DNA of 64,000 bases from a virus: positions 1,782-65,781 of the IMG/VR virus record IMGVR_UViG_3300021090_000015; one strand, 5' to 3'. Of this stretch, positions 37,781 through 55,468 are shown in pieces. Each line of letters begins with the position of its first letter. The first letter of the stretch is position 1. The notes under the pieces were generated by a model that was given only the letters and a program-made list of their open reading frames with translations, made no database searches and had not been told where the DNA came from. The translations under genes and the position numbers were made by a program.

Positions 37781-39037
37781 ATGACAGATCTAACTTCGTT
37801 TTTCAAAACCGACTTACTCGACGACCACGTGGCTGACGATATCAACCGGTTGATCGCTGCCAGTTTGCGTGCGGAGTTTCGTAATGTGGAGACCATCACA
37901 GCGACAAAGGAGCTGGCTGATTCGGATTGTCAGTTCCAGAATATCACGGCGAGCGGTGCGAATAGAACGGTAGAGCTCGCTCCGGAAGCAACGACCAATC
38001 ACTTCTTTGTCATCTCGAATGTGGGTGGCTCAAATAATGTGATTGTGAAAGATGACAGTGGGGTGACCACGTTCACAACGCTCTTTCCCGATGAGTGGTG
38101 TCTGGCGATCTCGAACGGATCGGCATGGAAAACATTATTCCCCGGGCGATCTGCACGAGTATGGGCAGGAAAGACGGCTGCCCCCACAACGGGCGATGAC
38201 AGCGCAGATGGTATCGCGGTGGGCGATCGCTGGATCGATGAGACCAACGATAAAGAGTACGTGGCGCTGGATGTGACCGTTGGAGCGGCAGTATGGACCG
38301 AGACGACTGGGGCCGGCGGAGGCGCTTCAGATGGATGGATTGCCGGATCTGGAACCTGGACATATGCCAGCGCAGACAGCCCCACTTTTACGCTGACTGT
38401 GAACGCAGACCTGACCAGCGCGATCGGTGTTGGGAACAGGATCAAGCTGACCCAGACAACGGCGAAGTATTTTATCGTGACGGCGATCTCCTACTCTTCG
38501 CCAAACACAACGATCACCATCTATGGCGGGGTAGACTACACACTCGCCAATGCCGCAATCTCCAACCCGTATTATTCCTCTGCCAAGGCGCCGGTCGGTT
38601 TCCCCCTTGATCCAGAAAAGTGGCAGGTGACATTCACGGATACATCCAGCAGATCACAGGCGTCTCCGGCACAGAACACCTGGTATAACCTGGGTTCGTT
38701 ATCTGTGAGCATTCCTATTGGGGTTTGGAGAATAAAGATCACAGTTGTTCTCCAAACCAGCGATAATACAGCAGCAACCGGTGTCACTAATGTAACCTTT
38801 TCCACTGCAAATAATTCAGAGAGTAGTAATAAGCTCACGCGTGCGCATTATTTTCAGGTTACTGGTGGTACTGCCGTGCAGTTTATTTCCCATGAGATCA
38901 TCGATGGGATTATTAATATTGCAACTAAAACGACCTACTATTTCAACGCACAGACAGGATCGACTGGTGTCGATACTATCTTTTTCCGCAATGACATCGT
39001 ACCGTTGTACTTTGTCGCGGAATGCGCCTATCTATGA
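37781..39037 (+). CDS. Tail fibre/receptor-binding protein
   Basis: APT..DD..DG..VG.RW, GAAVW, G..IKLTQ. Confidence 0.65.
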   Translation: MTDLTSFFKTDLLDDHVADDINRLIAASLRAEFRNVETITATKELADSDCQFQNITASGANRTVELAPEATTNHFFVISNVGGSNNVIVKDDSGVTTFTTLFPDEWCLAISNGSAWKTLFPGRSARVWAGKTAAPTTGDDSADGIAVGDRWIDETNDKEYVALDVTVGAAVWTETTGAGGGASDGWIAGSGTWTYASADSPTFTLTVNADLTSAIGVGNRIKLTQTTAKYFIVTAISYSSPNTTITIYGGVDYTLANAAISNPYYSSAKAPVGFPLDPEKWQVTFTDTSSRSQASPAQNTWYNLGSLSVSIPIGVWRIKITVVLQTSDNTAATGVTNVTFSTANNSESSNKLTRAHYFQVTGGTAVQFISHEIIDGIINIATKTTYYFNAQTGSTGVDTIFFRNDIVPLYFVAECAYL

Positions 39038-39203
39038 TCTGCCGGAATGAGAAATGGACAAGAACAAGCAACGATCACGTGATGCATTCTGGCGCGATCT
39101 GTTGTTTATTTTTCAGATCACGCTTTGTATGACGATCGTGGTCGTGATTTTGATCTGGGTGTTTGGGGGATGAGGACTGAAAGCAGAAGGATGAAGTGGG
39201 GAC

Positions 39204-39334
39204 TCTTGTTATACCAGGCGCGGAGATCCCAAACAAGAATAGTGATCGGTGATCAGTGGAACTCTTGTTTTTCTCGAGGACGATATCTGAAACAAGATTT
39301 CTTGTTTACCAGGCTCGAGCGATCGGGAACAAGA
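39204..39334. repeat. Three tandem TCTTGT-N23-ACAAGA elements
   Basis: 39204-39238, 39263-39297, 39300-39334; further copies at 6199, 39807, 40141, 41199, 42961, 58356, 58610. Confidence 0.75.
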
Positions 39335-39358
39335 TAACCGAATTGTTAGAATAGGGAT

Positions 39359-39850
39359 ATGGATACGACAGTAGATCGAACCAGATTATTTTCCCATTTG
39401 ACCCGGACACGGTTTCTGCACATCGAGGATGCGCTTGAGCGCGGGAAGCTGCGTTTCTTCATGGGATCATTCGAACGCGGGCAAGGTTCGAACCAGACGG
39501 TGTATGCCTTTCTGGACATCGACGATGCACGTGTGATCCTGCATGATCTCGCGGACGGGAAGCCGGTGGATTACAGCTCATTCGCCGGTGGGAAGAGCGG
39601 AGGCGGGTTGATCATCTCGCGCGTCGTGAAGATCCGAACGAACGATGGTCAAGTTTGGATCCAGGTACAAAACGGGCCGGGAGTCCATCAGGGTGGTGTG
39701 ATCAAGCCGAACGGGAAGCCAGCCGCGGAGATCTCAATCCCGTTGACGGTGTTCGAAGGGCGGAAGCTCGGTCATGCGTGCCTGGCATATTTACAGGCGT
39801 GGGACGTCTTGTGCAGGCGCCCAGCTCTCCGGGAGAACAAGAATGGGTGA
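39359..39850 (+). CDS. Conserved hypothetical phage protein (homolog of 4889)
   Basis: High similarity to 4889..5437. Confidence 0.75.
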   Translation: MDTTVDRTRLFSHLTRTRFLHIEDALERGKLRFFMGSFERGQGSNQTVYAFLDIDDARVILHDLADGKPVDYSSFAGGKSGGGLIISRVVKIRTNDGQVWIQVQNGPGVHQGGVIKPNGKPAAEISIPLTVFEGRKLGHACLAYLQAWDVLCRRPALRENKNG

Positions 39851-40139
39851 ATATATTTTGGTGTCACGCAGTGAGTGGTTCAAGTTCCCGCTCGAGGTGG
39901 CGACGTGCCCGATCTGTGGCGCCGGTGTTGTGGCGATCTTCGACGAATGGGAGTCTGAGACGGGACGCGTGACTGAATGCGGCTTCCACATCGATTGCAT
40001 CGACGAGCCGGATATACATGCTGATGCGTGGGATGTCTGGTTCACTTCGCACTGGTCGATGCCCTATGTGGACTGGCTGCCGCTCGAGGTGAGACTCTAT
40101 CAGTGGTTTGATCAGCGCTATCGGCTGAGGAACCCGTAA
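39843..40139 (+). CDS. Cys/Trp-rich hypothetical protein flanked by TCTTGT/ACAAGA elements
   Basis: CPICG; ATG directly follows ACAAGA. Confidence 0.55.
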   Translation: MGEYILVSRSEWFKFPLEVATCPICGAGVVAIFDEWESETGRVTECGFHIDCIDEPDIHADAWDVWFTSHWSMPYVDWLPLEVRLYQWFDQRYRLRNP

Positions 40140-40242
40140 TTCTTGTTTTCCACGTGGATCCATGATAAAACAAGATGCACGCATTCTGTGAATGCGTGCA
40201 TCTTGTTTTAAGTGTTCATGATCATGCGAACTGGAAACAAGA

Positions 40243-40473
40243 TTATTTCGTTGGAAATTCCCATATGTAGACTATTTGATCTGGCTTCGTCTGAGAGTTG
40301 GTTATCGTGCTGACAATATGGGCATAGCGAAGCATATCGACTCTATCGATATGGTTGAAAAACTTGATGTCATTCCACATCACTTGCTCTTTGAGATCGA
40401 CGACGCGCCACACCCCATCAGGGGCATACACTGCATCAAGGATCATGGATGAGACGCGGCTCTTTTTTGCCAT
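40243..40473 (-). CDS. Hypothetical protein
   Basis: 76 aa; stop abuts ACAAGA. Confidence 0.5.
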   Translation of the reverse strand: MAKKSRVSSMILDAVYAPDGVWRVVDLKEQVMWNDIKFFNHIDRVDMLRYAHIVSTITNSQTKPDQIVYIWEFPTK

Positions 40474-40896
40474 GGGGTTATTTTACAGCCAAATCTTGTT
40501 TTTAGATTTGTGGCCAAGTGCCATTTTGAGAAAGATGGCTCTACGTGTCAAATAAGGGCATTTTTGGGAGGCAGGTCTGATAGGTCAAAACGCGTGTGGC
40601 GCGCGCTGCCTGGCTTTTCCTGTGCAGGATTCCAGGCTGGTTTACAACTGCTCCCCCATTTTTAGCCGATCTGTTCTATGAATGGTGTGAAAAGCGCATA
40701 GTCACTAAGGTTTGTTGTATTTTCCCGGACCTGGTTTGGCGTTCCGGGGCAGGCAGGGGCGGGACAGGGCTGGGCGACGCGAAAGGGGCGGAAGACGACG
40801 ACGCGAACGTGTGCGGGTGGGCGCGTGCCTACATGACTACACGCGATGGTTCTTTAAGGTTTAATTGATTTAAGGGAATTAATGTATACTAATGGA

Positions 40897-41133
40897 ATGG
40901 ACGAGGAGAAACTGTTGACCGCCCCCGAGGTTGGCAAGTTGTTGGGTGTGACTTCGGCTACCATGAACCACTGGCTGGATGCCGGTCATTTCCCCAATGC
41001 CTACCGGTTGAACCCGATGAAGCCTCATTCGCCGTGGCGCATTCCGCGTGGCGATGTGGTTGAGTTCATCGCGGAGCGACGCAAACAACGCGGGTACCAG
41101 CGTCCGGTGGATATGTCGCAGATCGATCAGTGA
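40897..41133 (+). CDS. Excisionase/MerR-like HTH protein
   Basis: LLTAPEVGKLLGVTSATMNHW...WRIP. Confidence 0.75.
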   Translation: MDEEKLLTAPEVGKLLGVTSATMNHWLDAGHFPNAYRLNPMKPHSPWRIPRGDVVEFIAERRKQRGYQRPVDMSQIDQ

Positions 41134-41238
41134 TGGTTGCATCGATGCAGACTCTACCACCGATACAAGATTCCATGTGTGTGCGCATGTTACATGTTTC
41201 TTGTTTACGGCCTGGATCCATGGAGAGACAAGATTAAA

Positions 41239-41268
41239 TAAAAAAGCCCTGCTCAGCGCAGGGCTTTT
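41239..41268. terminator. Bidirectional intrinsic terminator
   Basis: AAAAAAGCCCTGC-TCAGC-GCAGGGCTTTT between convergent genes. Confidence 0.7.
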
Positions 41269-41813
41269 GCTTCGGACTTCAAAACGCGGACGCGCTTCTG
41301 TGGATTCGGTTCACTCATATCGGGATAGGATTGCAACTTTCCACGCGCAACATATTGCGAAATCGACTTGACCGATTTTCCGGAAAGATCTGCCGCATCG
41401 CTGATAGTGATCAGCTTATCACCCTGGCTCCACACAAATGCTGCCATGACGATGGACCCGAAATCTGACTTCCAAAATTTGTCGGGGATATCGTAGGACG
41501 ATTCGCCAGGGATGCCAAAGAGTTTCTCGACCAATCCCTGCACATGCTCATATATCTCTGCGCGATCCAAGCCTTTTGTATCGCCACTTGCGACACGGAC
41601 CATGTCGGCGATGGATTCGGCGATCAACAGAGATAGATAATCGTCCTCACTGCCTGGCATGTCTTTGCTGTTGAGCTCGATGCCGAAATGGTTGCGCAGC
41701 TCCCAGACCAGGGTGTCGAAATAGTCGTGCAAAAACACCAGGACAATTTCGCGGTAGGGATCATCGATACTGACTGGCTTGCTAAGTTTCATGATGCTCA
41801 TTAGTTTCTCCAA
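41253..41813 (-). CDS. Protein with C-terminal HTH
   Basis: ITISDAADLSGKSVKSISQYVARGKL. Confidence 0.6.
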   Translation of the reverse strand: MEKLMSIMKLSKPVSIDDPYREIVLVFLHDYFDTLVWELRNHFGIELNSKDMPGSEDDYLSLLIAESIADMVRVASGDTKGLDRAEIYEHVQGLVEKLFGIPGESSYDIPDKFWKSDFGSIVMAAFVWSQGDKLITISDAADLSGKSVKSISQYVARGKLQSYPDMSEPNPQKRVRVLKSEAKALR

Positions 41814-41843
41814 GTGCCAGGCTCAGGGGGAGCCTGGGTATTT

Positions 41844-42086
41844 TTATCGACGCTTTTTCCAGCCGAGCGTGCGATAGATTTGATTGATCTTATTGCGCAC
41901 GTCCTGCAAGTCGCGCTTGTCGCGCAGGATCGTTGAGCGGTTGACTGGCTCTTCATCGCCTGCCAATAGGTTGGCGATTTTTTGATACGAGAGATCATCG
42001 AGCAATCCCAGCGTATCGAGTTCAAGCATGATCGCCAGGCGGGCCGCTTTTTCGATGATCATTTTTTGTTTTTCATCGGTTGACAT
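41844..42086 (-). CDS. Small HTH-like protein
   Basis: LSYQKIANLL...VNRSTILRD. Confidence 0.55.
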   Translation of the reverse strand: MSTDEKQKMIIEKAARLAIMLELDTLGLLDDLSYQKIANLLAGDEEPVNRSTILRDKRDLQDVRNKINQIYRTLGWKKRR

Positions 42087-42128
42087 GTTCGTTTGACCGG
42101 CGGGTTGTTCGCCCGCCGGTCTTGATGT

Positions 42129-42494
42129 TTACTCGATCTCGACAGTCACTGCATCAACAGTGTAGCCAGGCTGACCGTTGTACCATTTTTGCTCCTCGGT
42201 CAGCTTGCCGAGCTCGTACATGTTGTGATCATCGTTGACGATACGACGCCAGCGGAGTCTGACTTTCACAAACCACGCGGTGGTGTAGTATGTTCCGCCG
42301 CGATAACTGGCGAGTGTGCGATCTTCTGAGATCGCTTTGTTGACCTGCAAAATCGTGCCGGTGTGATCTGGTCGGGTCGCCTTATCGACCTGCAAAAAAC
42401 TTTGTGTCTGTGATTCGTTCCAGACCTGGCTAGCTCCAGCGTTATATCCGAAACCAACTTTCGACCGACGTGTGATTGTGATTGTTTCAGTCAT
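42129..42494 (-). CDS. Hypothetical protein
   Basis: GGAGG RBS, operon context. Confidence 0.55.
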   Translation of the reverse strand: MTETITITRRSKVGFGYNAGASQVWNESQTQSFLQVDKATRPDHTGTILQVNKAISEDRTLASYRGGTYYTTAWFVKVRLRWRRIVNDDHNMYELGKLTEEQKWYNGQPGYTVDAVTVEIE

Positions 42495-42503
42495 GGCATC
42501 CTC

Positions 42504-42713
42504 CTAGCGGATCGTGAAAGATTTAACTTCGGTTCCGAAATTATCCACGATGTAGATCTTCCAGCCGCTTCCCATTTCGCGGCGAGCGGCGGATGTGGCG
42601 GCACTGATCGATGTGAAGATTCTGCCGCCGTTCGGATGGTCCATGTCGATGCCCACGCTGGTAGATGCTCCCTGGTTGTTGCTTGCCGAGACTGTGTACG
42701 TTATTTTATCCAT
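42504..42713 (-). CDS. Hypothetical protein
   Basis: AAGGAGATCAAA RBS. Confidence 0.55.
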   Translation of the reverse strand: MDKITYTVSASNNQGASTSVGIDMDHPNGGRIFTSISAATSAARREMGSGWKIYIVDNFGTEVKSFTIR

Positions 42714-42889
42714 TTTGATCTCCTTGTTTGGGGTTATAATTTTGGCGTGTCCTTGTTTGGGGACACGTCCCTCACTGTTTACGCAGTGGGGGATTTTTTC
42801 TTACGCTCATCCCCTGTCTCTTTTCAGCCATCTGCCGTATCTCGCCGGGTCTACCGGACTACCGTGTGCTGTTTGCTTTGTATGTTTCT

Positions 42890-42917
42890 ATTATACTCAA
42901 TTCTATAGAGTTGTCAA
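42890..42917 (-). promoter_or_regulatory. Consensus promoter for the minus-strand accessory operon
   Basis: TTGACA-16-TATAAT; near-palindrome CAATTCTATAGAGTTG in the spacer. Confidence 0.75.
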
Positions 42918-43002
42918 GGGTTGAAAGATAAGAAAAAAGCTACTCAATTGAGCAGCTTGATCTTGTGCAGCCTGGGAGCTGGGTCCTGAAACAAGATGGA
43001 GT

Positions 43003-43434
43003 CTATGACGTTACTGGTGGTGGCGCGACCGGTGCAGGCTGCGCTTCTGGATCTGGAGTTTTTCGGATCGATCCAATTAATGCCAGGAATGTTCCCAGCG
43101 GGCTCAAGCAACTTAAACCAATGCCAAGCGATGTGCGTACGCTATCTGATTCAACTGCCAGTCCCATAATAGAAAGTCCTTTGAGAGCCAGGACAAGACC
43201 ACACCCCAGGGCGACAATGGCACCAAAGCCCGAGAAGGTCTTTCCGGGTTGTTCTTTCGCCAGGAGCGCGATCAACAGCAGAATGAAACCTCCTGCACCA
43301 GTGAGAATGCCATCTGTTTCAAAACCGTAGATGCTGCGGGATAATCCGAAGATTCCACTAACAGTTGCCCAGGGAGTGGCTGCACCGATCAAAATTAAAA
43401 TACTGCCGATCAATACGAGAGTCTTTGCTTTCAT
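43003..43434 (-). CDS. Membrane protein (accessory slot)
   Basis: About 4 TM segments; same AGAAAGGGTG RBS as the unit A BRCT gene. Confidence 0.65.
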   Translation of the reverse strand: MKAKTLVLIGSILILIGAATPWATVSGIFGLSRSIYGFETDGILTGAGGFILLLIALLAKEQPGKTFSGFGAIVALGCGLVLALKGLSIMGLAVESDSVRTSLGIGLSCLSPLGTFLALIGSIRKTPDPEAQPAPVAPPPVTS

Positions 43435-43525
43435 GGGTTCACCCTTTCTGTAACCTTTCAACGGTTTGAATATCTTGTATTTTGCCTCTTGACAGCAGTG
43501 CGGTAAGTTTGGTAAGATATGGCGC

Positions 43526-43723
43526 ATGAACAAAAACGATCTCATGACAGTTCCAGAATTTGCGGCAGCGATGGATGTGGACCGCAATACCGTCACCGAA
43601 TGGGTGAGACTTGGTAAAGTAAAAGGTTTCAAGAAGGATCCTTTCCAGGCCAAGACTTCACCTATATACATTCCACGCAGCGAGCTTGAGCGCGTCAAGA
43701 AGCTCATGAAAGAGAATGAGTAG
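43526..43723 (+). CDS. Excisionase-like HTH protein
   Basis: Homolog of 7180..7392; leaderless promoter 43489-43518. Confidence 0.8.
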   Translation: MNKNDLMTVPEFAAAMDVDRNTVTEWVRLGKVKGFKKDPFQAKTSPIYIPRSELERVKKLMKENE

Positions 43724-43728
43724 ATCGA

Positions 43729-44259
43729 ATGACTAAGGAAATTCCACTTACCCACGGCAAGATAGCATTGGTCGATGACGCTGATTACGAGTGGCTGCGT
43801 CAATGGAGGTGGAGTGCGTGGTCGCATAAACGTAATTGGTATGCTATACGTTATCAAGGCAAACCGCGTAAGAATATTTTTATGCATGTCGAAATCATAA
43901 AACCATCTGAATGTATGGTAATTGACCATCGGGATCGCAATGGTCTTAACAACCAAAGGTACAACTTGCGAGAATGTACGAATGTTCAAAATTTCAGAAA
44001 CAGAAGAAGGCAAATTAACAACACATCTGGCTACATTGGCGTGGACAAAAACCGTGGCAGGTGGCGTGCAAGAGTAGATTTCTATGGTAAAAAAATCCAC
44101 GTTTATTATGGATATGATTTAGAAGCCGCTGCTCGAGCATATGATGCAAAGGCATTTGAATTGTTTGGTGAATTTGCGAGTCTAAATTTTCCAAATCGTC
44201 TTGATTCTGGTTACTTAAAAAAGAGCGCCCGCTCTGATCAGCGGGCGCCCGGTCAGTGA
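43729..44259 (+). CDS. HNH-AP2 homing-type endonuclease
   Basis: IDHRDRNGLNNQR.NLR..T..QN..N; NTSGY.GV..RWRA..EAAARAYD..A..LFGEFA.LNF. Confidence 0.88.
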   Translation: MTKEIPLTHGKIALVDDADYEWLRQWRWSAWSHKRNWYAIRYQGKPRKNIFMHVEIIKPSECMVIDHRDRNGLNNQRYNLRECTNVQNFRNRRRQINNTSGYIGVDKNRGRWRARVDFYGKKIHVYYGYDLEAAARAYDAKAFELFGEFASLNFPNRLDSGYLKKSARSDQRAPGQ

Positions 44260-44321
44260 CTGGAACCAGGGCTATTTTCCGAACTGCTCTTTAACAACAG
44301 AATAGACCTAGTTACAGTATG

Positions 44322-44370
44322 AGCGGGTGATGGGACTCGAACCCACGATATCATGCTTGGGAAGCATGCG
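44322..44370 (-). tRNA. 3' half of tRNA-Gly(CCC) = att core at B/C junction
   Basis: 47/49 identical to 7509-7557; anticodon stem CATGC/GCATG. Confidence 0.85.
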
Positions 44371-44434
44371 CTTGGCAGTTCATTTTCTGCCTTGAGAACA
44401 CCATGCTCCCAAGTTAATTTTTGGGGTGAGACGA

Positions 44435-45301
44435 TTATATCTTCTCTTGGTCATCCGTAGGGTGGAATTTTTCGAGGAAGTTATCCACGACCAGAAGACC
44501 CCGAAGCTGTTCCAGTTTGAGATTGCGAGTGTAGCGTTTGATCATGGCGGGAGATTTCCAACGATACAACTCCATCATGGCTCGTTCGGATAGATTATTC
44601 AGGACGCCCATGACAGCGGTCGAGCGGCGTAGATCGTGAAAGCAAAGTGTGATGCCGATTTTGCGACCCCATTCACGGGCGATGGAATAGAGTCCTTCGG
44701 GCGTGAGCCCTTCCCCGGTTTGAACATGCGTAAATAAATAACCCTGACCATCGGCGATCTTGCGAAAGGACATCCAGCGATCAATACGCATGGCGGTCTG
44801 TTCGCCAAAGATGGCGGCTTCCCATTGACCACCCTTCACAACGACTTGCAGTTTGCGGTGCTCCAGATCTGTGTCAGCCTGTTCCAGGCGGCAGACCTCG
44901 GACTCACGCAAGCCGGTGTCGAAGACGAGCGAGCAGATCGCCAGGTCGCGAGCGCCTTTCGCTGAATAGGGGTCGAAGGATGCCAGTAGTTTGAGAGCCA
45001 TCTCGGGGTCAAGTGAGCGCTGCGGTTTTCCAATCACCCGTTTTATCTTTGCATTGCGCGCTGGATGTTTTTGCCCATAGGTCCATACCATATATCTTTT
45101 GATGGCAGCCAGGGCAAGGCACTGACGCGCGTTCCCCCACCCGCTTTGTTCCAATAATCGAATTAACTCCGCGGCTGTCAGGCTGGCGGGGTCCTGCACT
45201 TGATCGAGGATGCGATGTATCACATCCCGATAGGTGCGTTTAGACGTGCTGGCATAGGTATATGCCGACGAAAGAAATTCTTCGAGGTCGTTGGTATTCA
45301 T
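44435..45301 (-). CDS. int: Phage tyrosine integrase
   Basis: TGLRESE, VKGG, HDLRR, RW, RYT; homolog of 7628..8476. Confidence 0.9.
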   Translation of the reverse strand: MNTNDLEEFLSSAYTYASTSKRTYRDVIHRILDQVQDPASLTAAELIRLLEQSGWGNARQCLALAAIKRYMVWTYGQKHPARNAKIKRVIGKPQRSLDPEMALKLLASFDPYSAKGARDLAICSLVFDTGLRESEVCRLEQADTDLEHRKLQVVVKGGQWEAAIFGEQTAMRIDRWMSFRKIADGQGYLFTHVQTGEGLTPEGLYSIAREWGRKIGITLCFHDLRRSTAVMGVLNNLSERAMMELYRWKSPAMIKRYTRNLKLEQLRGLLVVDNFLEKFHPTDDQEKI

Positions 45302-45389
45302 TTTTCCTCACGTTTGAAAATGGCATAACCAGGCGCGGATAGCCCCCGAGCCTGTTTTGCGAACCCCGCGGCCTGCGCGGGTATCAGTA

Positions 45390-45440
45390 CAACGACTCTG
45401 CTGTAGGAGATCAACCACGAAGACCCCAGCAGAGCCGTTG
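45390..45440 (+). ncRNA. Candidate structured RNA, copy 3
   Basis: CAACG-A-CTCTGCTG / CAGCAGAG-C-CGTTG around GGAGATCAACCACGAAGACC. Confidence 0.55.
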
Positions 45441-45474
45441 CAAAAATAATTTTACTACAAGGAGACCAACCAAA

Positions 45475-45981
45475 ATGCTTACAAAAAAAGAACGATCAAA
45501 AGAAGAGTCAGACGCTCTCATTAGAGCTCTGGCTTGGAACGATGGGTTCGGCTGCTACACGCGCGCAGGGTTTGAAAAAATGATCTGGACGGAGATCGCA
45601 GAGAAGGCGCGATACATCGTGTATTTCGATGTCGATGATGTGCACGCGCTGAATGAGAAGTTCGGCAGTTATGACCCCGTGGACGCAATGATCAAGCAGG
45701 CGCTTGCCGTTGTGCGATTGACCGATTACGTGGCGGGTCAGTGGAAAAGTGGTGACGAATTCCTGGTCTGCTTGACAGAGGAAGCACAACCATCCGATTC
45801 GCTGCGTACGGAGATCGATCCGCTGGCGATGGTGAACCGGCTGGAGGATGCGTTGAAGCGGCAGGGGTTATCGGCGACGTTCGCGGTCGTGCCAGTCACA
45901 TCGCACGATCTTCGCGCAGCGATGAAGCCAGCGGTGGATATGGTGTACCAGGAGAAAAAGCAGAGGGGAGATCGGCGATGA
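45475..45981 (+). CDS. Stand-alone GGDEF-like protein (SGDEF motif)
   Basis: ND.FG..TR.GF, YFDVD...LNE..G...D, SGDEF. Confidence 0.75.
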   Translation: MLTKKERSKEESDALIRALAWNDGFGCYTRAGFEKMIWTEIAEKARYIVYFDVDDVHALNEKFGSYDPVDAMIKQALAVVRLTDYVAGQWKSGDEFLVCLTEEAQPSDSLRTEIDPLAMVNRLEDALKRQGLSATFAVVPVTSHDLRAAMKPAVDMVYQEKKQRGDRR

Positions 45982-46277
45982 AAAAACGGATCCATGTTCT
46001 CGGTGGAAGAGCCGCGGTGAATAATCCGGTGCCTGCTGAATGTCCCTATTGTCATGCGTCGATGCAGGGAAGGAGTTATCACAGTTATCTGGGGCATCTC
46101 GGACTGCACGGGTTGGCGAATAAATATTTCAAAGGCAATCTGCAGGCGGCGCAGAAACGGTTGCGGGAGAACGGGCGAGCTCGCTCCGATCCATTTCGGG
46201 GCAATGGCGCCTGGAAACCCTATCGACCCATCCTCGTGACGATGGAGATCGGCGGGGAATTGATGCAAACCCCATGA
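45978..46277 (+). CDS. Cys/His hypothetical protein
   Basis: CPYC...H.G.H. Confidence 0.55.
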   Translation: MKKRIHVLGGRAAVNNPVPAECPYCHASMQGRSYHSYLGHLGLHGLANKYFKGNLQAAQKRLRENGRARSDPFRGNGAWKPYRPILVTMEIGGELMQTP

Positions 46278-46418
46278 AAGGAGGTGATGTCTGAAAGATG
46301 ATTGATAAAAAAACCTCGCGATGTTGCAACATCGCGAGGAGTGATCGGGGCGCAAGGAGTACCACCAAGTAGACCAGCGCCCCTTTCGAAAATATTTTAC
46401 ACCAAAAAGGAGACCACC

Positions 46419-47094
46419 ATGAAAAAACATTTGATCGATCCGGATGCTGCAAAGGCGCACGGGATAGCGTTGGACGAACGGGGCTGGCCCACGACCAACA
46501 GCTTACAGGAATGGCACGCAAAAAATAACCCGCAATTTTTTACAAAGGAAGAGAAAAAAGAGAAACCTGAGTTCTCGATTCCGTTGTGGATTATCCCGTT
46601 GCTGCCAATTGTAGTCCTTGTCATCCTGATCCTGAAATAGGACAGATGAAACATCATACCAGTCTGGCTGATCGTCCGTGATGACGGTCAGCCAGAATAG
46701 GAAACCATTCCATGAATGACGACACTCCCCAAAAACAACAATTCAATGTCAGCAGCGATGATGACGGGCTCAACATCGATATCTCGTTCCCGATCCAATG
46801 GCTTTACCTGCTGATCCCTATTGCCATCATCGTCGTCGCCTATTTCGTATTCAAGTAGATCAATACAGGAGTACCACCATGAAAAACAAATTAACCATGG
46901 TTATCTTGACCATCCTGACGATCACCGGATTGGTTTTGATCATCCCCTCTGCCATACAGTGGCAGGCGTTATTGATCCAGGCGGGACTTGGTAACTCTGC
47001 CCCACTCGCATCCGGAGTCCTGCAAATGGCTGGCGGAATGATCTGCCTTGCCATTGTATGGGGCATTGTGCGACCCACACAGAACAACGTGTAA
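46419..47094 (+). CDS. Three small membrane ORFs (46419-46640, 46712-46858, 46879-47094)
   Basis: Each has an RBS and hydrophobic segment(s). Confidence 0.5.
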
Positions 47095-47142
47095 AACGAT
47101 CTTCGCTGAAGATCGATCTGATATGTAAATGGAGACCACCAA

Positions 47143-48075
47143 ATGAGTAACAAGAATAAAACAATTTCGCAATGGGCATTTTATATCCTAATCGGTGTGC
47201 TGCTGTTTTATGCAGCATCCCGCACTTTGCATTTTGTGCAAGGTGTGATGGCGAATTCGACCTGGGGATATCTATTTCTCTTCTCGACTGGCATAGGTGC
47301 ATTGATCTGGCTCTACGTGTACCTGACTTATGCCGAGGGAGCCAAACAACGCGCGATCTCGTTCGTGATGGGGCTCGTTGATCTGATCGGAGAGCTCGCC
47401 CTGGTCTATGCCGACACGATGTATGTCGGGGAGAAAGCCGGATTGGTAAAGATGAGTCCTGACGAAATGCAATTGTTCGTCATCGTCAGTGTAGCGATGG
47501 TGGGCATCAATATCTTTGCCGGGTATCTGTTCAAGCTGTGGGATCTGAGAGCTGAGCAGGAACAACATGCGCAGGACCTGGTCGACCATGTGACTGATGC
47601 CACCATGAAACATCTAAACACGCCGGAAGCAAAGCAGCAGATGGTGCAAGAACTGCTGCCCGTTTTGAAAAACTCGATCGCGGCACGCGTGCAAAGCGAG
47701 ATCTTTTCACGAGCGAGTCAAACAGCCGGGCTCGATGCACGCGCCGTGGGATGGCCCATTGCTGATCCGAAGCAGAAAAAGGAGCAAGTTGTGCCGATGG
47801 TGCAGCCGGGTTTTTTAGAACGGCTGAAGGATTTCATGCCAGGACGCGAGAAGCAGGTCAACAATTCCATGGTGTGGACCACAGACCCGCAGGGAAACCG
47901 CGTACGGATCCTGTGCATGATCTGCCAGCGCGACGGAAAGCCCTGGATGACACCCGAGCCGTGCGATCACATCCTAAACGCCAAAGAGCACAGCGGAAAT
48001 CTCAACTACATGAAGGACTCGGCGGAGGTGAAAAACATTTTGAACGATTCTCTGGGCTCCGGAGACCCATCCTGA
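47143..48075 (+). CDS. Multi-pass membrane early protein
   Basis: Homolog of 9433..10353. Confidence 0.75.
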   Translation: MSNKNKTISQWAFYILIGVLLFYAASRTLHFVQGVMANSTWGYLFLFSTGIGALIWLYVYLTYAEGAKQRAISFVMGLVDLIGELALVYADTMYVGEKAGLVKMSPDEMQLFVIVSVAMVGINIFAGYLFKLWDLRAEQEQHAQDLVDHVTDATMKHLNTPEAKQQMVQELLPVLKNSIAARVQSEIFSRASQTAGLDARAVGWPIADPKQKKEQVVPMVQPGFLERLKDFMPGREKQVNNSMVWTTDPQGNRVRILCMICQRDGKPWMTPEPCDHILNAKEHSGNLNYMKDSAEVKNILNDSLGSGDPS

Positions 48076-48263
48076 TAAAGATCTGCGCCTGTGGATGTGG
48101 AAAGAAATTCAAGACCACGTTCCCGGATAAGACCACGATCAATGATGCGCACAGAAAGAGACTTTCCAGGAAAAAAATCAATTAATGTCACGACCCGTGT
48201 CGTGACTATTCCACCCGCACGGGCATTCCTGTGCGGGTGGAAACCCAGGAAGGAAGCATTATT

Positions 48264-48653
48264 ATGAATAAAAAAACCATATCAATTTTGATATACCTGG
48301 CGTTCTTGAGCCTGGCGTGTTTACAAACTGCAATAGTGGCAAATGACCTGACGCCTGGCGCAGAATCGATATCAACGTCAACGTTTCGACCTATTTCAGG
48401 ATCTGCAACGGTCCAGAATTTACCATCCGCATCACCGACTGAACCGTTTTTTACCTGTGCACAGGTGATCGCCAGCAAAGCGCTCAACCTGCGCAAGGGC
48501 GCCAGTGAGCACACGCAGATCATCACCTGGCTGCGCAACGGTGACCAGGTGCGAGTGATCAGCGTCGATGGGGATTGGTGGATGATCGACGCGGGCGGCA
48601 CGATCGGCTATGTGCGCTCTATGTATCTAGCACAAGGCGACTGTTTGAAATAA
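48264..48653 (+). CDS. SH3b-domain lipoprotein
   Basis: LAC lipobox; LNLRKG...GDQV.V...WW.I..G..GYVRSMYL. Confidence 0.75.
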   Translation: MNKKTISILIYLAFLSLACLQTAIVANDLTPGAESISTSTFRPISGSATVQNLPSASPTEPFFTCAQVIASKALNLRKGASEHTQIITWLRNGDQVRVISVDGDWWMIDAGGTIGYVRSMYLAQGDCLK

Positions 48654-48683
48654 ACATTAGATCCACTTTTTAGGAGATCATCG

Positions 48684-49652
48684 ATGCAACATCAGTTACT
48701 CATACAATCCCTGAAAGAGAGTAGGGCACAAATTCTGCTGGCGTTTCTTTTCGCCGGTCATGCGATGGACGTGGAAGAGCTGATGACCTGGACGGGTATG
48801 GCACGCACACCCCATTATCACCATCTGGCGGCGCTTTGCGCTGCAGGGTTTCTGGCAAAGCAGACTCTCTCTCATGGTCGGCATGTCTATCTGCTTGGAT
48901 CCGAAATGCTCCCGGTTTTGCAGGCATGGGTCGCTCAGATTGGCGCAGGTACTCCGAAGTTGGAAGGTGGGGCGCTCATGATCCAGGAGTCATCTAAGAT
49001 GACATCTGGCGATGATCTTATTATTATTAACCCTCCTCAGCTCAATATAAAAGACTCTAGTGTTAATAATAATAATAAGGCGCAGGAGTCATCTAAGATG
49101 ACTCCTGCCGATTTTGCCGCCTTGCTGGAAGCGCTGGCAAAACATAAGATCGTCGGCAAAAAGAAGGACGAGCTGATTGGCTGTGAATGGGTGACGGCGG
49201 GATATGTCCATGCTTCGATTGAGTTTGCCATCGCTGAAGGTCACGGAAAATACAGCGTGGGCATCGCGATCAACCGGATGCTTGAAATGATGGAACAACC
49301 AGCGCGCGGGGAGAACGGTCACATTGAGAATTGCCAGTGTGAGCAGTGCTCCGATGATGTCGGTGTTTCCGAACCCAGCGGGGCAGGTTATTCAGGTGGG
49401 ATGTTTGCAGAATATTTCAATCAAGCACCGACATCTCTAGGCTGTGTTTGGCAGGATGATGACGAGCAGACTTTCAAGTCTGGACATCCATTTGAGGGAC
49501 AACATCGAAAGCAGCCCGCCTGCAAGAAACCACTTAAATCAGGATCACATCATTGGTGCGAAGAGCATTATCAGATCGGGGTCGAAACCTATGGGACAGG
49601 ACAGATCCCAGGTGCAGACTCCGAAGATGAAGAACAAGGAGATCAACCATGA
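48684..49652 (+). CDS. Putative replication initiator
   Basis: HTH-like N-terminus; internal palindromes; ENGH..CQCEQC. Confidence 0.6.
   Translation: MQHQLLIQSLKESRAQILLAFLFAGHAMDVEELMTWTGMARTPHYHHLAALCAAGFLAKQTLSHGRHVYLLGSEMLPVLQAWVAQIGAGTPKLEGGALMIQESSKMTSGDDLIIINPPQLNIKDSSVNNNNKAQESSKMTPADFAALLEALAKHKIVGKKKDELIGCEWVTAGYVHASIEFAIAEGHGKYSVGIAINRMLEMMEQPARGENGHIENCQCEQCSDDVGVSEPSGAGYSGGMFAEYFNQAPTSLGCVWQDDDEQTFKSGHPFEGQHRKQPACKKPLKSGSHHWCEEHYQIGVETYGTGQIPGADSEDEEQGDQP
48984..49107. repeat. Putative origin: two CAGGAGTCATCTAAGATGAC repeats flanking an AT-rich inverted repeat
   Basis: Second copy is the perfect palindrome CAGGAGTCATCT-A-AGATGACTCCTG. Confidence 0.55.
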
Positions 49653-50035
49653 GCGATATCAAAGTCAACGGCGTGACCTATCGCCAGCGGACGCGCAAAT
49701 GCGGCAACAAGAAATGCAAATGTGCGACGGGCGAGGAACATGGTCCCTATTGGTATGCATTTAGCGACGGCGGGACGGCAAAGTACATCGGTCTGGAATT
49801 GCCGAAGGAAATCACAGACCATCTGGCGAAGCTAAAAGCCAGTGGGGGAAAGATCAAGAAACTTCGCGAGCAGATATCGAAGCAGCAGGCGAATTTCTAC
49901 GAGAAATATATCGAGGCACAACGACAATTAGGCGCGCTGCGACAGCTTGAAGCCGGGGACTATGTGGGTGCGCAGGTGTTGGCGGATCTCGGGCTCAAGG
50001 ATCTTGTTTTCTTGGGTCCGCGATCGGGAAAGTGA
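49649..50035 (+). CDS. DUF6788-like zinc-binding protein
   Basis: RKCG..KCKC..G..HGPYWY. Confidence 0.65.
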   Translation: MSDIKVNGVTYRQRTRKCGNKKCKCATGEEHGPYWYAFSDGGTAKYIGLELPKEITDHLAKLKASGGKIKKLREQISKQQANFYEKYIEAQRQLGALRQLEAGDYVGAQVLADLGLKDLVFLGPRSGK

Positions 50036-50283
50036 GAAACAAGATGATCAAAAATTCAAATGTACAAAAAATCAAAGGATCAAAAGTTTTGGTGCGGGCG
50101 CACCGATTGGCAAGCCTGCCAATGGAGTCGATCAAGGGTTTGATCTTGAGCTTTTGCTCGCGCGGTGACCTACGCGTGCTTGGGGCAGGGGAAGCAATCT
50201 GCAGAGCGCGCAAGGAAACCCAGAAGGCGCGGGTGATCCACCGCAAGATCGAACGATTACGAAGGGAGTTGATAAAGCAATGA
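50032..50283 (+). CDS. Basic hypothetical protein
   Basis: Homolog of 11675..11899. Confidence 0.6.
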   Translation: MRNKMIKNSNVQKIKGSKVLVRAHRLASLPMESIKGLILSFCSRGDLRVLGAGEAICRARKETQKARVIHRKIERLRRELIKQ

Positions 50284-50792
50284 ACATGCAACTGCTTGAA
50301 AAATATCTATTTGTCGATGGCGGAGTTGTCAGTCGAAATCCGTCGACGATCGGCGGCACGATGGCATGGCGCCACATTGTGAATAGACAAGTCACAGCGC
50401 AGGGGACCGCCATCATCACGCCAGCGGACGCCGAGCTGCCAGCGATCACAAATAATCTAACGGAAATGCTGGCACTAGTGATCGGCTTCGAAGAATTACC
50501 TGGCGATTGGATCGGGACCGTATGCAGCGATAGCCAGGTGACCCTGGGACGTGCGTTCATGGGCTGGCGCTGGAAGAATGTCCCGATGTGGCTGGTTCAT
50601 CGCTTCCAGGAACAACGCGCTCGATTGGTCCATTACGAGCAGATCAAATTCATTTTATTGGATGGTCATCCCACGAAGGCGCAGCTCCTCAGTGGAGTAG
50701 GAAAGCGCGGACATCCGGTGAGCGAGCACAATGTTTGGTGCGATGAAGCGTGCGGGGAGAATGGTCAAGTTCTTGCAGGGAGGACGGCATGA
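50280..50792 (+). CDS. Ribonuclease HI-like protein
   Basis: FVDGG, TNN..E..AL..G, V.SDSQ, GH...N..CD. Confidence 0.75.
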   Translation: MNMQLLEKYLFVDGGVVSRNPSTIGGTMAWRHIVNRQVTAQGTAIITPADAELPAITNNLTEMLALVIGFEELPGDWIGTVCSDSQVTLGRAFMGWRWKNVPMWLVHRFQEQRARLVHYEQIKFILLDGHPTKAQLLSGVGKRGHPVSEHNVWCDEACGENGQVLAGRTA

Positions 50793-51716
50793 ACACTAAA
50801 AACAATTGGTTAACGACGGCGACGATCCATGATGAGCAGAGACGGGCGTTGTGGAGTGATGTTTTCCCTGGTGCGGTGGTGCCTATCAAGTCGATGCTGG
50901 CATGCAGTGTGAACGTCCCGGAGCGAGGCAAGGCGCTGGCGTATATGCTTGATCTGGATGCGATCAGTGATGAGCAACGTGAGGGATTGATCCGCGTGAT
51001 CAGTGAGCGGTTTAATTATCCAGCGGAGGAAGTGCGCCAGGAGATCGATCGCGGCGTTCCGATCCTGGCAGAGGATGTCAGCGTTGGGACGCGTGACCAG
51101 GGAATGTTCCTTTCGTTGATCGACGATGAAAATCATACGCCGTTCTGGGATCACAACGAAGATCTGAGCGATCTCCAGGAATGGGAGGATGATTGACATG
51201 GACGAGGAAAGAGTTTTCAGAGAAGCGTATCAACTACTTAACGAGATCAAGATATCGCTGGGCGGGGAAGCGATGGTGAGTCTGATTGTCCTGCCGGTGA
51301 ATGATGGCATGTTACACATCCGCTTCGACTGGCCGGATAACGTCCATGTGGAGATCCAACTGGAAGAGCGACAGGTGCGCACGATGGCGATCTGTGAAGT
51401 GACGAGCATGGCGATCCAGGGACGCCGCGCGTATTTGCAGACGTGCAGTCTTGTGCAGTGATGGTCCTTCCAGGATAACAAGAAAGAAAGGAATTTCAAA
51501 ATGAACGCAAACGCACCAATGAATCCGTATCGTGATTTTTTACGCAAGGTCTATCGCATGAGAACCGCGCAGGTTAAGTTCTCTAATTCCAAGTCGTCGA
51601 GTGATTTAAAGGCAGTAGTGGCGCTGGAAAAAGAGATCGATGAATGGTTGAAGCGCTGCGGCTTCGAAGCGTCGCAAATCAAGCAAATGCGGCTCGATAT
51701 GGAAAAACCTAATTAG
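50789..51716 (+). CDS. Three hypothetical early ORFs (50789-51196, 51189-51461, 51501-51716)
   Basis: Co-oriented, tightly packed, RBS present. Confidence 0.5.
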
Positions 51717-51727
51717 GGGAATCTAAA

Positions 51728-52213
51728 ATGTCTCAAAAAACACAAAACTCAGCCTACAGGTACCCCAGGGTATGTCAGAAAGATGTCAGGAAAACGAAAG
51801 TCGGGAGGGCTGACTCTTTGGACGCAGAGCCCCTTTTAATTAACCTGGGGCACTTGGTGGGAAGTCTCTCCACCGGCGGGAAAGTGGCAGCGTACACGCA
51901 GGTCGCGGCGCAACTCTCGGTATTGGCTGGATTAAAAAATGGACATTCATGGGGATGGCGATATGTGGCGAGTGTTCATCGAGGAACGATGCAGCCAAGT
52001 AAAAAATTTGTGCGTGTGCTGATCTTGTTATTACAGAAGATCAGTCCACGGGAAAAGCAATGGTTTTATTTTACACGTCGCCGGTCTGTGGCGGCGGTGT
52101 ATGATAAGTCTATTTTTGTGGAGATGATCACGGGTCAAATGAAGAGCCTGGGATTTAAGTCTGTGACGTTTTCGCGATACATGCAGGTGAAGAATCGAGC
52201 GGTGCATCGATGA
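51728..52213 (+). CDS. Possible HTH protein
   Basis: YTQVAAQLS...WRYVASVHRGTMQPS. Confidence 0.4.
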   Translation: MSQKTQNSAYRYPRVCQKDVRKTKVGRADSLDAEPLLINLGHLVGSLSTGGKVAAYTQVAAQLSVLAGLKNGHSWGWRYVASVHRGTMQPSKKFVRVLILLLQKISPREKQWFYFTRRRSVAAVYDKSIFVEMITGQMKSLGFKSVTFSRYMQVKNRAVHR

Positions 52214-52770
52214 CAAGAAAACCAATTTCGAGAGTGGATAGTGGCAGTACACATGGTTGGTTTGCGCGTGTGTATCGCGCGGAGTGGGTTGGACCGAGGT
52301 CGTTCGCTGATGCACAATATGGCGGGCGAGAGAAAGCGGAAGCGGCTGCCTGGAAGTGGGTCAGGATGGCAGACGAACAACTACCTATGATTCCGCCCAA
52401 GCCAGTGCTTAGAAAAGCTACCATAACGTTGCGATCGGAAAATAAATTACAGGGCGTTCTCCATTATTGGGACGTCTATCTTCCACCGTTGGATGACGAG
52501 ACAACATGGTCACAAAAGTTTTTCTTCCACATGCTGGACGAGAAAGAAAAGCAGAAGGCAAAAGCGGATAGCATTGCTGACGAGCGCAACCAAGTCCTGC
52601 AAAAGATCCATGCCGGAGAATTAGCTGTCTGGTATATGGAGCATGACAGGCTTATGGAGCAGATTTTGAGCATGTGGAACGAAGTGAAAAAGCTCTCGAC
52701 GGAAGCCACCGAGAGTCTTGTCTCTGCAAGAGATGCGCCGGCGGCACAAGAACAGGAGATCCAATCATGA
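52210..52770 (+). CDS. AP2-like DNA-binding protein
   Basis: ISRVD..THGW.ARV...RSF.D..YGG.EKA..AA. Confidence 0.55.
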   Translation: MTRKPISRVDSGSTHGWFARVYRAEWVGPRSFADAQYGGREKAEAAAWKWVRMADEQLPMIPPKPVLRKATITLRSENKLQGVLHYWDVYLPPLDDETTWSQKFFFHMLDEKEKQKAKADSIADERNQVLQKIHAGELAVWYMEHDRLMEQILSMWNEVKKLSTEATESLVSARDAPAAQEQEIQS

Positions 52771-53917: not shown

Positions 53918-54066
53918 TACCGTTAAGAGCGAATAGACCAGAAACTGTAACCTCGACACCATTGCTTTTTATTAAGGTTCGCATGTAGAATGCAGAAGGA
54001 CAGACCCACTCCCATTAATGGGTCTGTCCCCTTTAATGACGTAAAGAGTGGGTCTGTTTGTAAACA

Positions 54067-54696
54067 ATGACCTACCAAGAACCCAAGACTACTCCTGAAA
54101 CAGAGACGCAGAAACAGCGTATCATCGATCCGCGGTTCGACGAGATCGGCGATCTAAAGAAGCGCATGGCCATCATGGAGCGCATCCAGATCGATACGTC
54201 TCAACGGTTGACTGGCTTCATTGAAGACTGGATGAGGGAGCAGCTCGATCGTAGTGAGACTCAAAATGATCAGGCGGAAACTAACATAGGGGCACTGGAA
54301 GAAGCGTTGGTGGAAATCCGAAAGAAGAGGGAGGAATTAATTCATCAGATTGCCAGGGCGACTGGACCCGATTTTTTATCATTGAAAGTCCTGGATGATA
54401 TTCTCGAAAACAGACAACTCAAAACAACCCAGGAATTGAATGCAGCAAAGAAATCGAAACGACATGCGGAGGAACACGTCAAGTCGTCGAGCCAAAAGCT
54501 GAAAGCGATCAAGATGGGTCCACAGACGGGCGTGCCGCCGTTGCCATCATCTGAGCCAGTCAAGTGGGGATCTGGCGCCTGGTTCAAGCAGGGGATTGGC
54601 ACAGACTTCATCCGTGTCATTGTTCTTATGCTCGGATTGGAGTTGATCCGCAGCGGATTAATTCCGCTCCTGCAACGAGCATTTGGTAATCCATAG
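54067..54696 (+). CDS. Coiled-coil protein with C-terminal TM helix
   Basis: Own promoter TTGCTT..TAGAAT upstream. Confidence 0.6.
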   Translation: MTYQEPKTTPETETQKQRIIDPRFDEIGDLKKRMAIMERIQIDTSQRLTGFIEDWMREQLDRSETQNDQAETNIGALEEALVEIRKKREELIHQIARATGPDFLSLKVLDDILENRQLKTTQELNAAKKSKRHAEEHVKSSSQKLKAIKMGPQTGVPPLPSSEPVKWGSGAWFKQGIGTDFIRVIVLMLGLELIRSGLIPLLQRAFGNP

Positions 54697-54706
54697 GCGG
54701 GATGAG

Positions 54707-55128: not shown

Positions 55129-55148
55129 CTATCAACAAGGAGAATACT

Positions 55149-55466: not shown

Positions 55467-55468
55467 TC

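Follow-up and report, generated by a model that had tools for sequence, protein, structure and literature searches.

A dispersed bipartite element at accessory-gene borders in a phage lineage, and DUF6788 as its candidate binder

Known systems and the element

The stoperators of cluster A mycobacteriophages are sites of the L5 gp71 repressor, 13 bp long, asymmetric, orientation-dependent and distributed genome-wide. The PeSL cassettes of T4-type phages consist of a promoter and a conserved terminator hairpin and recombine by homology. Here we describe an element, TCTTGT-N23/24-ACAAGA, that recurs in a window of 64,000 nucleotides, which is the whole stretch of DNA analysed and makes up most of a 67.7-kb virus record in IMG/VR (IMGVR_UViG_3300021090_000015). 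The whole element is 35–36 bp long and dyad-symmetric. Sequence comparison and structure prediction lead us to hold, with moderate confidence, that it is a double-stranded binding site of a dimer of a DUF6788 protein, and that the sites serve as boundary marks at cassette borders.

Like stoperators, the element consists of a dozen or more strictly conserved short motifs spread across the short intergenic regions of a temperate phage, stoperators being present in addition to a true operator; unlike them, it is a bipartite dyad with a free interior, is often in tandem and is found in accessory zones only, and its putative binder is DUF6788. Like PeSL, it is a short conserved repeat between genes that borders optional genes of hyperplastic regions and marks places of gene shuffling, but it lacks a promoter and has no homology beyond 6 bp at each end. 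The repetitive extragenic palindromic (REP) units and bacterial interspersed mosaic elements (BIMEs) of enterobacteria are likewise dyad units of about 35 bp, single or tandem, placed between genes in operons. Those repeats occur throughout the host genome as nearly identical imperfect hairpins that carry a GTAG end, and RAYT transposases mobilize them, whereas the present element is restricted to a phage lineage, has arms that avoid pairing and diverse interiors, and is accompanied by no RAYT in the phages examined. It resembles the integron attC site in having short inverted ends, a variable middle and a position flush with cassette genes, and an integron occurs in the same phage family; however, its ends differ from RYYYAAC/GTTRRRY, a bottom-strand hairpin is lacking, a length of 35–36 bp is below that of any attC, tandem copies occur without genes, and three phages carry it without IntI. 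The autoregulatory dyads and iterons found beside DUF6788 genes of other lineages have in common with it the same domain, a half-site with a TCTT core and an overall dyad of about 35 bp. In those lineages, the sites cluster at the DUF6788 gene, over its promoter or in its open reading frame (ORF), with half-sites of 10–12 bp, whereas the sites in the window are dispersed, with 6 bp fixed per half and palindrome-rich interiors. To our knowledge, there is no precedent for the three-slot interior of the element, which has a fixed length and scant consensus and is filled with differing short palindromes, and none was found in the literature searched.

If correct, the proposed binding would be the first function assigned to DUF6788, namely sequence-specific binding to a bipartite dyad, for a domain that occurs in phages, archaeal-type viruses, bacteria and some transposase-like proteins. 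The element would then be a novel punctuation mark for the borders of optional genes, a job that an integron fills in a sister phage. The phage family allows testing of how phages organise and exchange accessory genes, and the three-slot design of the interior calls for an explanation.

Element copies in the window

Self-comparison of the window reveals tandem related phage units: the right end of a unit X, a complete unit A and the left two-thirds of a unit B. The pattern TCTTGT-N20–32-ACAAGA has 14 matches in the window, compared with 0.03 expected from dinucleotide-preserving shuffles, and the interior measures 23 or 24 bp in 12 of the 14. An earlier, sequence-only reading of this DNA had reported twelve copies, far more than expected by chance. 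All twelve are real (ten perfect N23/24 copies, an N30 variant at 40201 and a TCTTGG variant at 50010), the excess over chance is confirmed, and two perfect copies at 51449 (N23) and 52716 (N24) had been overlooked. Its description of the surroundings was also accurate: CCWGG is present in most interiors (8 of 14); copies lie flush against the minus-strand stop codons at 6235 and 40243, the stop codons at 40139 and 58609, and the ATG at 39843; and genes 39843–40139 and 58406–58609 are bracketed by elements. The latter gene follows the terminase gene of the second phage unit; in the first unit, no equivalent gene stands at that place. Copies with a single mismatch in the 12 end bases are nearly absent (one in the window and 0–2 in shuffles); the end hexamers are therefore essentially invariant.

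Copies sit between genes or across the last codons of a gene, typically starting 0–3 nt past a stop codon and ending 0–20 nt before the next ribosome-binding site or ATG. They are limited to three zones: the early accessory region, the region just after the terminase gene, and the region after the tail-fibre genes. In the window, these correspond to 50002–52716 (early, unit B), the copies at 58356 and 58610 (post-terminase, unit B), and 39204–42996 (post-tail-fibre, with a further copy at 6199 in unit X). The features are as follows.

6199–6234, element N24, flush with the stop codon of minus-strand gene 6235–7101 (BRCT-domain protein)
39204–39238, element N23, the first of three located 5′ of the Whirly-fold gene
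39263–39297, element N23, 2 nt from the next copy
39300–39334, element N23, upstream of the Whirly-fold gene
39359–39850, plus strand, Whirly-fold gene, 163 residues, its last 14 codons running through the element at 39807
39807–39842, element N24, ending at the ATG of gene 39843–40139
39843–40139, plus strand, accessory gene, 98 residues, no family match, elements on both sides
40141–40175, element N23, 1 nt past the stop codon at 40139 and followed by a hairpin (40176–40200)
40201–40242, element variant N30, flush with the stop codon of minus-strand gene 40243–40473
40243–40473, minus strand, accessory gene, 76 residues, skipped by the contig joint 40209→40492 in both sediment runs
41199–41233, element N23, left border of the moron block
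41236–42960, minus strand, moron block of 1725 bp, a self-contained transcription unit of three genes with a consensus promoter (42917–42890) and a terminator (41268–41242)
42961–42996, element N24, right border of the moron block
49649–50035, plus strand, DUF6788 gene, 128 residues, candidate element binder, its 3′ end overlapping the element at 50002
50002–50044, element variant, TCTTGT-N31-ACAAGA (TCTTGG-N23-ACAAGA when read from 50010), at the very end of the DUF6788 gene
51449–51483, element N23, upstream of the ribosome-binding site of gene 51501–51716
52716–52751, element N24, within the last codons of ORF 52210–52770
58356–58390, element N23, 30 nt past the stop codon of the terminase large subunit (TerL)
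58406–58609, plus strand, accessory gene, 67 residues, elements on both sides
58610–58645, element N24, flush with the stop codon at 58609 and 15 nt before a promoter-like TTGACA-N17-TATAAT site

The hairpin at 40176–40200 has a perfect 11-bp stem (TGCACGCATTC-TGT-GAATGCGTGCA) and exactly fills the gap between two elements, with convergent genes on either side; the next element opens with a T-rich stretch (TCTTGTTTT) that could act as a U-tract. The consensus TTGACA-N17-TATAAT site (58655–58690), 10–15 nt past the last post-terminase element, is kept in a related locus, L005 (approximately 6190–6225).

Anatomy of the ends and the interior

Copies were also counted along the whole length of five further records, G302–G305 (37.7–40.5 kb) and the incomplete G306 (22.4 kb); G303–G305 are estimated to be complete and G302 to be 55% complete. 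The pooled set comprises 175 distinct copies, 154 of which are 36-mers, and all 175 have TCTTGT and ACAAGA as their ends. The pooled interiors are 64% G+C, and their columns carry 0.05–0.57 bit each (first 83 copies), that is, the length is kept with nearly no consensus. Elements occur singly or in head-to-tail arrays, in which the gap between neighbours is 2 nt (76 cases) or 3 nt (92 cases).

The interior is built from short palindromes, with an enrichment of 4–6 fold: there are 284 palindromes of 6 bp and 130 of 8 bp, compared with 77 ± 8 and 20 ± 5, respectively, in composition-preserving shuffles. At least one 6-bp palindrome is present in 89% of the distinct copies and at least two in 55%, and palindromes occupy 8% of interior positions versus 1.1–2.0% elsewhere in the carrier genomes. 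They are arranged around three centres spaced 6 bp apart, at positions 12.5, 18.5 (the centre of the element) and 24.5, with complementarity at 11:14, 17:20 and 23:26 (z 5.7–7.0). Common words are GCCGGC, TGGCCA, GGCGCC, CTCGAG, CAGCTG, CGATCG, CTGCAG, GATATC and CCWGG, and slots 1 and 3 are mostly filled with differing words. Related copies have one part in common and one slot swapped for another palindrome, for example GCCGGC, GCCTGGC, GCTCGAGC or CACCGGTG in one slot and GCGATCGC versus GCCCGGGC in another. As palindrome is exchanged for palindrome, it is therefore the dyad symmetry itself that is being kept. Near-identical interiors also occur at different places in one genome, such as ATGGCGCCAGGTCCGCC... 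at three sites of G303.

The arms avoid pairing with each other: positions 7:30 to 14:23 are complementary less often than by chance (z −1.7 to −4.1), and only 17:20 pairs. Predicted RNA folds are weak (−4 to −13 kcal/mol), with a closing stem of 6–9 bp and a loop of 18–24 nt. The element thus does not fold into a hairpin as attC and REP sequences do. Both the three palindromic slots of the interior and the avoided pairing between the arms depart strongly from chance, and they are genuine features that none of the readings considered here explains.

An 11-bp palindrome, CCACCAGGTGG, stands beside an ACAAG half-site both in a phage of 67% G+C (L159, 4040–4095) and in the window (58610–58645), which hints that palindromes adjacent to half-sites are a shared feature of the system.

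Distribution among phages, metagenomes and bacteria

Among relatives identified through TerL, the element is present at about 74% TerL identity or more and absent in more distant ones. The count in related phages that the sequence-only reading had suggested gives 9–15 copies per genome of 22–40 kb (11–15 in each of G302–G305 and 9 in G306), with none for the reversed-pattern control. G302 is a distant phage, yet it carries 11 elements with identical ends despite a TerL only 26–28% identical to that of the window; the best of the proteins it shares with the window are the 163-residue protein (48% identity), the 128-residue DUF6788 protein (42%) and a 170-residue protein (55%). The sole genome match for TerL, at 52% identity, is an Anaerolineales metagenome-assembled genome without elements, and the deposited phage collection searched for DNA resembling the window gave no match. 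Scanning viral contigs for two adjacent units revealed carriers with 2–10 copies in the stretches fetched, all of 49–58% G+C. The same scan returned approximately 30 single chance matches on low-G+C contigs, 27 without an interior palindrome and three with one, which provide an internal control. A stricter scan of metagenome contigs yielded 43 stretches from approximately 20 metagenomes. The carriers form a family of phages from soil and sediment.

The class of the nearest bacterial relative is represented by 301 Anaerolineae genomes, which have 0–2 matches each, not above the reversed-pattern control. With at most two matches per genome, the element therefore belongs to a phage lineage and not to a host-wide repeat family, within the genomes searched. 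This goes against the host REP-like repeat that the sequence-only reading had offered as one explanation, and the host-wide dispersal that it had named as evidence against phage-specific roles is not seen in these 301 genomes; we reject a host REP on that basis. The Y1 transposase (PF01797), a search for which had been proposed as a trace of RAYT, was absent from phages G000 and G302–G305 in a six-frame search that covered phages rather than the host and in which control genomes gave hits. The arms, as noted, remain unpaired beyond 6 bp.

The DUF6788 protein as candidate binder

The 128-residue protein of the window matches the Pfam model DUF6788 (PF20586) with 37.6 bits, and its relatives match with 43.9–45.1 bits (curated cut-off 27.2). 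Seven copies of the gene were found in six genomes, all with an element 13–193 bp downstream and six of the seven within 29 bp. This linkage holds in the distant G302 and for both paralogues of G305. At loci that are anchored on the terminase and extend 6 kb or more upstream, the gene is present in all four carriers of the element and absent from the one non-carrier.

The predicted structure (predicted local distance difference test (pLDDT) score of 87) comprises a β-rich head, in which C18, C23, C25 and H31 are conserved, and a helix of 36 residues. Prediction of a homodimer gave a score of 0.69, compared with 0.02 for the best of three controls, and this mark is reached by 20 of 30 proteins solved as one-chain pairs and by 1 of 23 solved as single chains. 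The homodimer runs agree in at least 90% of contacts, with a partner pLDDT of 85. The predicted contacts (94:76, 83:83 and 97:69) are those of an antiparallel coiled coil, which would therefore place the two heads at opposite ends of a rod of approximately 54 Å. Rod and heads together are estimated to be on the order of the 99–102 Å that separate the centres of the hexamers. Comparison of the fold with the Protein Data Bank (PDB) returned nothing informative, the best rows being generic coiled coils; a row for a methyl-CpG-binding domain (probability 0.2–0.33) is not significant. Sequence searches of the PDB with the DUF6788 and Whirly-fold proteins were empty, and the literature search on DUF6788, the motif, and palindrome-rich or polylinker-like phage repeats retrieved nothing relevant.

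DUF6788 relatives in other lineages

A second virus group (18 loci, L160–L177), with TATA-box promoters, encodes a 188-residue protein with a DUF6788 N-domain (28.2–30.9 bits; 48% identity over 64 residues). GTCTT(A/G/C)TGTAAG or its complement is present in 12–18 copies within 400 bp of this protein, versus 0–4 copies elsewhere per locus, and one locus uses GTCTTGTGTAAG, which contains TCTTGT. The upstream iterons include a 17-bp inverted pair around the promoter, and the downstream iterons fall inside the protein's own reading frame, a layout that recalls lambda O, with the origin inside the O gene. In the 67% G+C phage, 10 of 14 motifs of the CACAAG/ACAAGA/TCTTGT type lie within 420 bp after the DUF6788 gene. 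Two bacterial genomes have a DUF6788 promoter spanned by CTTAGGTAAC-N15-GTTACCTAAG, a perfect dyad of 10+15+10 = 35 bp, and a third has a 34-bp dyad of different sequence in the same place (L182, 1449–1482). From their position, these chromosomal promoter dyads look like autoregulatory operators. The recurrence of the DUF6788 family beside bipartite dyads with a TCTT core and a length of about 35 bp is, as judged from sequence, what a DNA-binding protein and its target sites would be expected to show. In a protein atlas, a 571-residue 'transposase family' cluster, mostly from Acidobacteriota, contains DUF6788 in 78% and UPF0236 in 72%, and DUF6788 may serve there as the end-binding domain of a transposase family.

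At L160:3880–4546, as in L161–L177, seven tandem GTCTTATGTAAG iterons are located 5′ of the 188-residue DUF6788-head gene, and the in-frame inverted iterons encode an LHKT/LTQD/LPKT repeat linker. The CTTAGGTAAC...GTTACCTAAG dyads, at L184:1302–1336 and L185:1295–1329, lie over TTGACT/TATAAT promoters of chromosomal DUF6788 genes (Anaerolineae-class).

A proposed ruler-type docking site

In the reading that we favour, each DUF6788 subunit would contribute an N-terminal zinc-ribbon-like head and the 36-residue helix. The helix pair would pack antiparallel with the heads at opposite ends of the rod, the heads would read the invariant hexamers TCTTGT and ACAAGA, and the rod would act as a ruler that fixes the 23–24 bp between them. 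Because the rod would set the spacing, the length of the interior would be kept while its sequence drifts; a ruler-type bipartite site fits the invariant ends, the low-information interior and the fixed length. The sites probably mark cassette boundaries as protein-bound transcriptional roadblocks or insulators, resembling the dispersed operator-type sites of other mobile elements, and gain and loss of genes at element edges would be a consequence of the location of the elements at cassette borders. Binding sites for a dimeric phage regulator had been among the proposals of the sequence-only reading, and this is the one that the evidence supports best. DUF6788 provides the candidate through its linkage to the element, its co-occurrence with it, its predicted geometry and its homologues beside TCTT-core repeats; both binding and its effect are what we infer from the anatomy, distribution, gene-to-site linkage and predicted dimer geometry.

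Several points weigh against DUF6788 docking. The link between protein and element comes from gene neighbourhood, from co-occurrence in related and non-independent phages, and from structure prediction. Units A and X have elements and no DUF6788 gene of their own; the protein would therefore act in trans from unit B in a tandem lysogen. The largest arrays adjoin the Whirly-fold gene and not the DUF6788 gene, and the half-sites of the homologues measure 10–12 bp, compared with only 6 bp fixed here. A plain ruler leaves the palindrome enrichment at three centres and the avoidance of arm pairing unaccounted for, and the head-to-head distance of the dimer is an estimate from helix length only.

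Gene content variation and alternative explanations

Contigs from two freshwater-sediment DNA runs were placed on window positions 38700–58699; one run is possibly the source sample of the window, so it gives no independent confirmation of the sequence. No RNA run was among the sequencing runs listed as containing this DNA. Empty and filled alleles, a comparison that the sequence-only reading had called for, are found in these contigs, with blocks present or absent exactly at element edges. A contig of run X1 (depth 8.7 versus approximately 90) joins 41235 to 42961, skipping exactly the moron block; both flanking elements are intact and form ACAAGA-TT-TCTTGT, 2 nt apart as at a normal array junction. 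The joint 40209→40492 removes gene 40243–40473, the joint 58304→58655 removes the element–gene–element unit after TerL, and the joint 39175→39289 likewise touches elements, the total being 4 of 9 joints.

Sister phages also differ at these positions. The slot after TerL holds differing small genes and 0–7 elements, and the same 67-residue gene is found with 0, 1+1, 2+2 or 0+4 flanking elements, abutting TerL without an element in loci L007 and L014 and accompanied by 2+2 elements in L005. Three tandem elements of G303 are represented in G305 by two elements, 1.2 kb of genes and one element. End points of homology fall within 50 bp of an element in 24 of 302 cases, versus about 9 expected (approximately 2.7-fold), with 92% located elsewhere. 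The elements mark variable borders, which does not imply that they cause the variation.

A C5 cytosine methyltransferase-like ORF (FPGIDLLGRGF ... GGSPCQDFS) is encoded beside the post-terminase elements in L011 (approximately 12310–13110, minus strand) and in L018 (198–962).

The elements could instead be recombination or insertion sites of a gene-cassette system, as the sequence-only reading had proposed in naming them a second cassette system that mobilises genes, with insertion and excision at their edges or at the ACAAGA-NN-TCTTGT junction. The agent would be a yet-unnamed enzyme or microhomology-driven template switching, and such a role is compatible with protein binding. We consider this unlikely, although it accounts for a good deal: the clean absence of a 1725-bp promoter–genes–terminator unit between two intact elements, the two joints that drop a gene and an element–gene–element unit, the G303 array that is filled with genes in G305, the varied content of the post-TerL slot, the enrichment of homology end points near elements and the Whirly-fold protein encoded beside arrays. 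Presence or absence of blocks at element edges and the variation in array size between sisters are the parts of the proposal that stand. No linked recombinase was found: serine recombinases and DDE enzymes, like Y1, were absent from the five carrier phages, each of which has only the phage integrase apart from IntI in one unit. G303, G304 and G305, with 11–15 elements, have one tyrosine recombinase each (a phage integrase of approximately 285 residues) and no IntI, and the IntI-type integrase of the window is encoded in unit A (13096–14196), with none in unit B. Furthermore, the great majority of homology break points lie away from elements, and at one and the same place a gene may have flanking elements in one phage and none in another, which shows that elements and genes move independently of each other. 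The joints derive from short-read contigs, which give only the two sides of each joint, and the E-TT-E junction variant was absent from the viral and JGI metagenome contigs searched. No other loci were found with the same two elements at another spacing, and no clear case was seen of cassette genes moving between zones of different phages. A second kind of integron site was rejected, as G303–G305 have elements without IntI.

More doubtful is the idea that the element, DUF6788 and the Whirly-fold protein together constitute a gene-docking system outside the known ones, in which arrays are empty slots and genes are inserted and removed precisely at the 2–3-nt junction without a known recombinase family. 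The palindromic interiors would serve, for example, as orientation-free pairing words, and in sister phages the system would fill the genomic niche that the integron has in unit A of the window.

There is only a small chance that the element is a selfish repeat, similar to a REP or a miniature inverted-repeat transposable element (MITE), that spreads in intergenic DNA through a transposase acting in trans, with DUF6788 as its stand-alone end-binding domain. Terminal inverted repeats, positions restricted to non-coding DNA or gene ends, copy numbers that shift fast between sisters, the near-identical interiors at several places of G303 and the atlas cluster that combines DUF6788 and UPF0236 would all be expected of such a repeat. 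However, the flanks show no direct target-site duplication, transposases are absent from the phages examined, and the 301 genomes of the candidate host class have no excess of copies. Decayed copies are nearly absent despite very diverse interiors, which speaks for selection on the ends and not for recent bursts. No longer fused relative of the window DUF6788 protein scored when such relatives were searched for, which is weak evidence.

It is very improbable that the element acts at the RNA level, as a hairpin between cistrons that serves processing, stability or translational coupling: copies do lie between operon genes, near stop codons and ribosome-binding sites or ATGs, but predicted folds are weak, the stem never covaries and further pairing is avoided, and the element is strand-symmetric and also occurs between convergent genes; Rfam gave only sub-threshold chance hits. 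The least credible reading takes the interiors as clusters of restriction–modification targets, that is, a 'polylinker', decoy or methylation sensor. Most copies do contain restriction-type 6-bp words, slots 1 and 3 tend to differ in word, and the methyltransferase-like ORF adjoins elements in two loci, but the words are common elsewhere (CGATCG 30 and TGATCA 64 times outside elements in the window), used and never-used palindromes are equally avoided elsewhere (observed/expected 0.90 versus 0.90), and the elements lack the most strongly avoided words, for example AAGCTT and AGTACT. A restriction decoy or polylinker was rejected on the frequency of the words and their lack of special avoidance. 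Also set aside were a long hairpin or cruciform, given the weak folds and avoided arm pairing; a CRISPR-like array with a 15-nt junction hairpin as repeat and 24-nt 'spacers', as units are usually complete and stand alone and there is no excess of orphan half-sites; and a coding repeat, as the array period of 38–39 bp is out of frame.

The neighbouring Whirly-fold protein

In every genome examined, G302 among them, the gene of the 163-residue protein ends 5–50 bp away from an element or array, and it usually adjoins the largest arrays. Copies of the protein have 163–182 residues; the exception in position is a second copy in the window (4889–5437), whose nearest element is 864 bp away. The predicted structure (pLDDT 90.1) matches StWhy2 (Z-score of 13.7 and root mean square deviation of 3.7 over 140 aligned residues), PBF-2 (Z-score 12.8) and MRP1/2 (Z-score 12.1), the next unrelated row having a Z-score of 6.1. 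The Foldseek probability for the Whirly fold is 1.00, and the two β4-α repeats of the model are superposable on solved Whirly proteins. By its predicted fold, the protein is a single-strand nucleic-acid binder of the Whirly/PUR/MRP type; the Pfam Whirly model gave no hit, and the protein has no Pfam or PHROG match at all. Whirly proteins are binders of single-stranded DNA, and in plant organelles they modulate microhomology-mediated repair (PMC3245945). The protein is a lead, rather than a result, for the gene-cassette explanation or for a second partner of the element.

The 163-residue protein is kept at 48% in the distant G302, and its nearest neighbours in the protein atlas include phage clusters with 65% Pfam Whirly.

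Other genes near the elements

Gene 6235–7101, which ends at the element of unit X, encodes a 288-residue protein with a BRCT domain (Pfam, 28.7 bits) that matches phrog_3989 (E 3e-82) and shows weak similarity to the C-termini of NAD-dependent ligases. Compared with unit A, unit B has a 4.5-kb insertion between the terminase and portal genes (window 59852–62601), which encodes a Big_12 Ig-like protein and a 559-residue Laminin_G_3 (concanavalin-like) protein.

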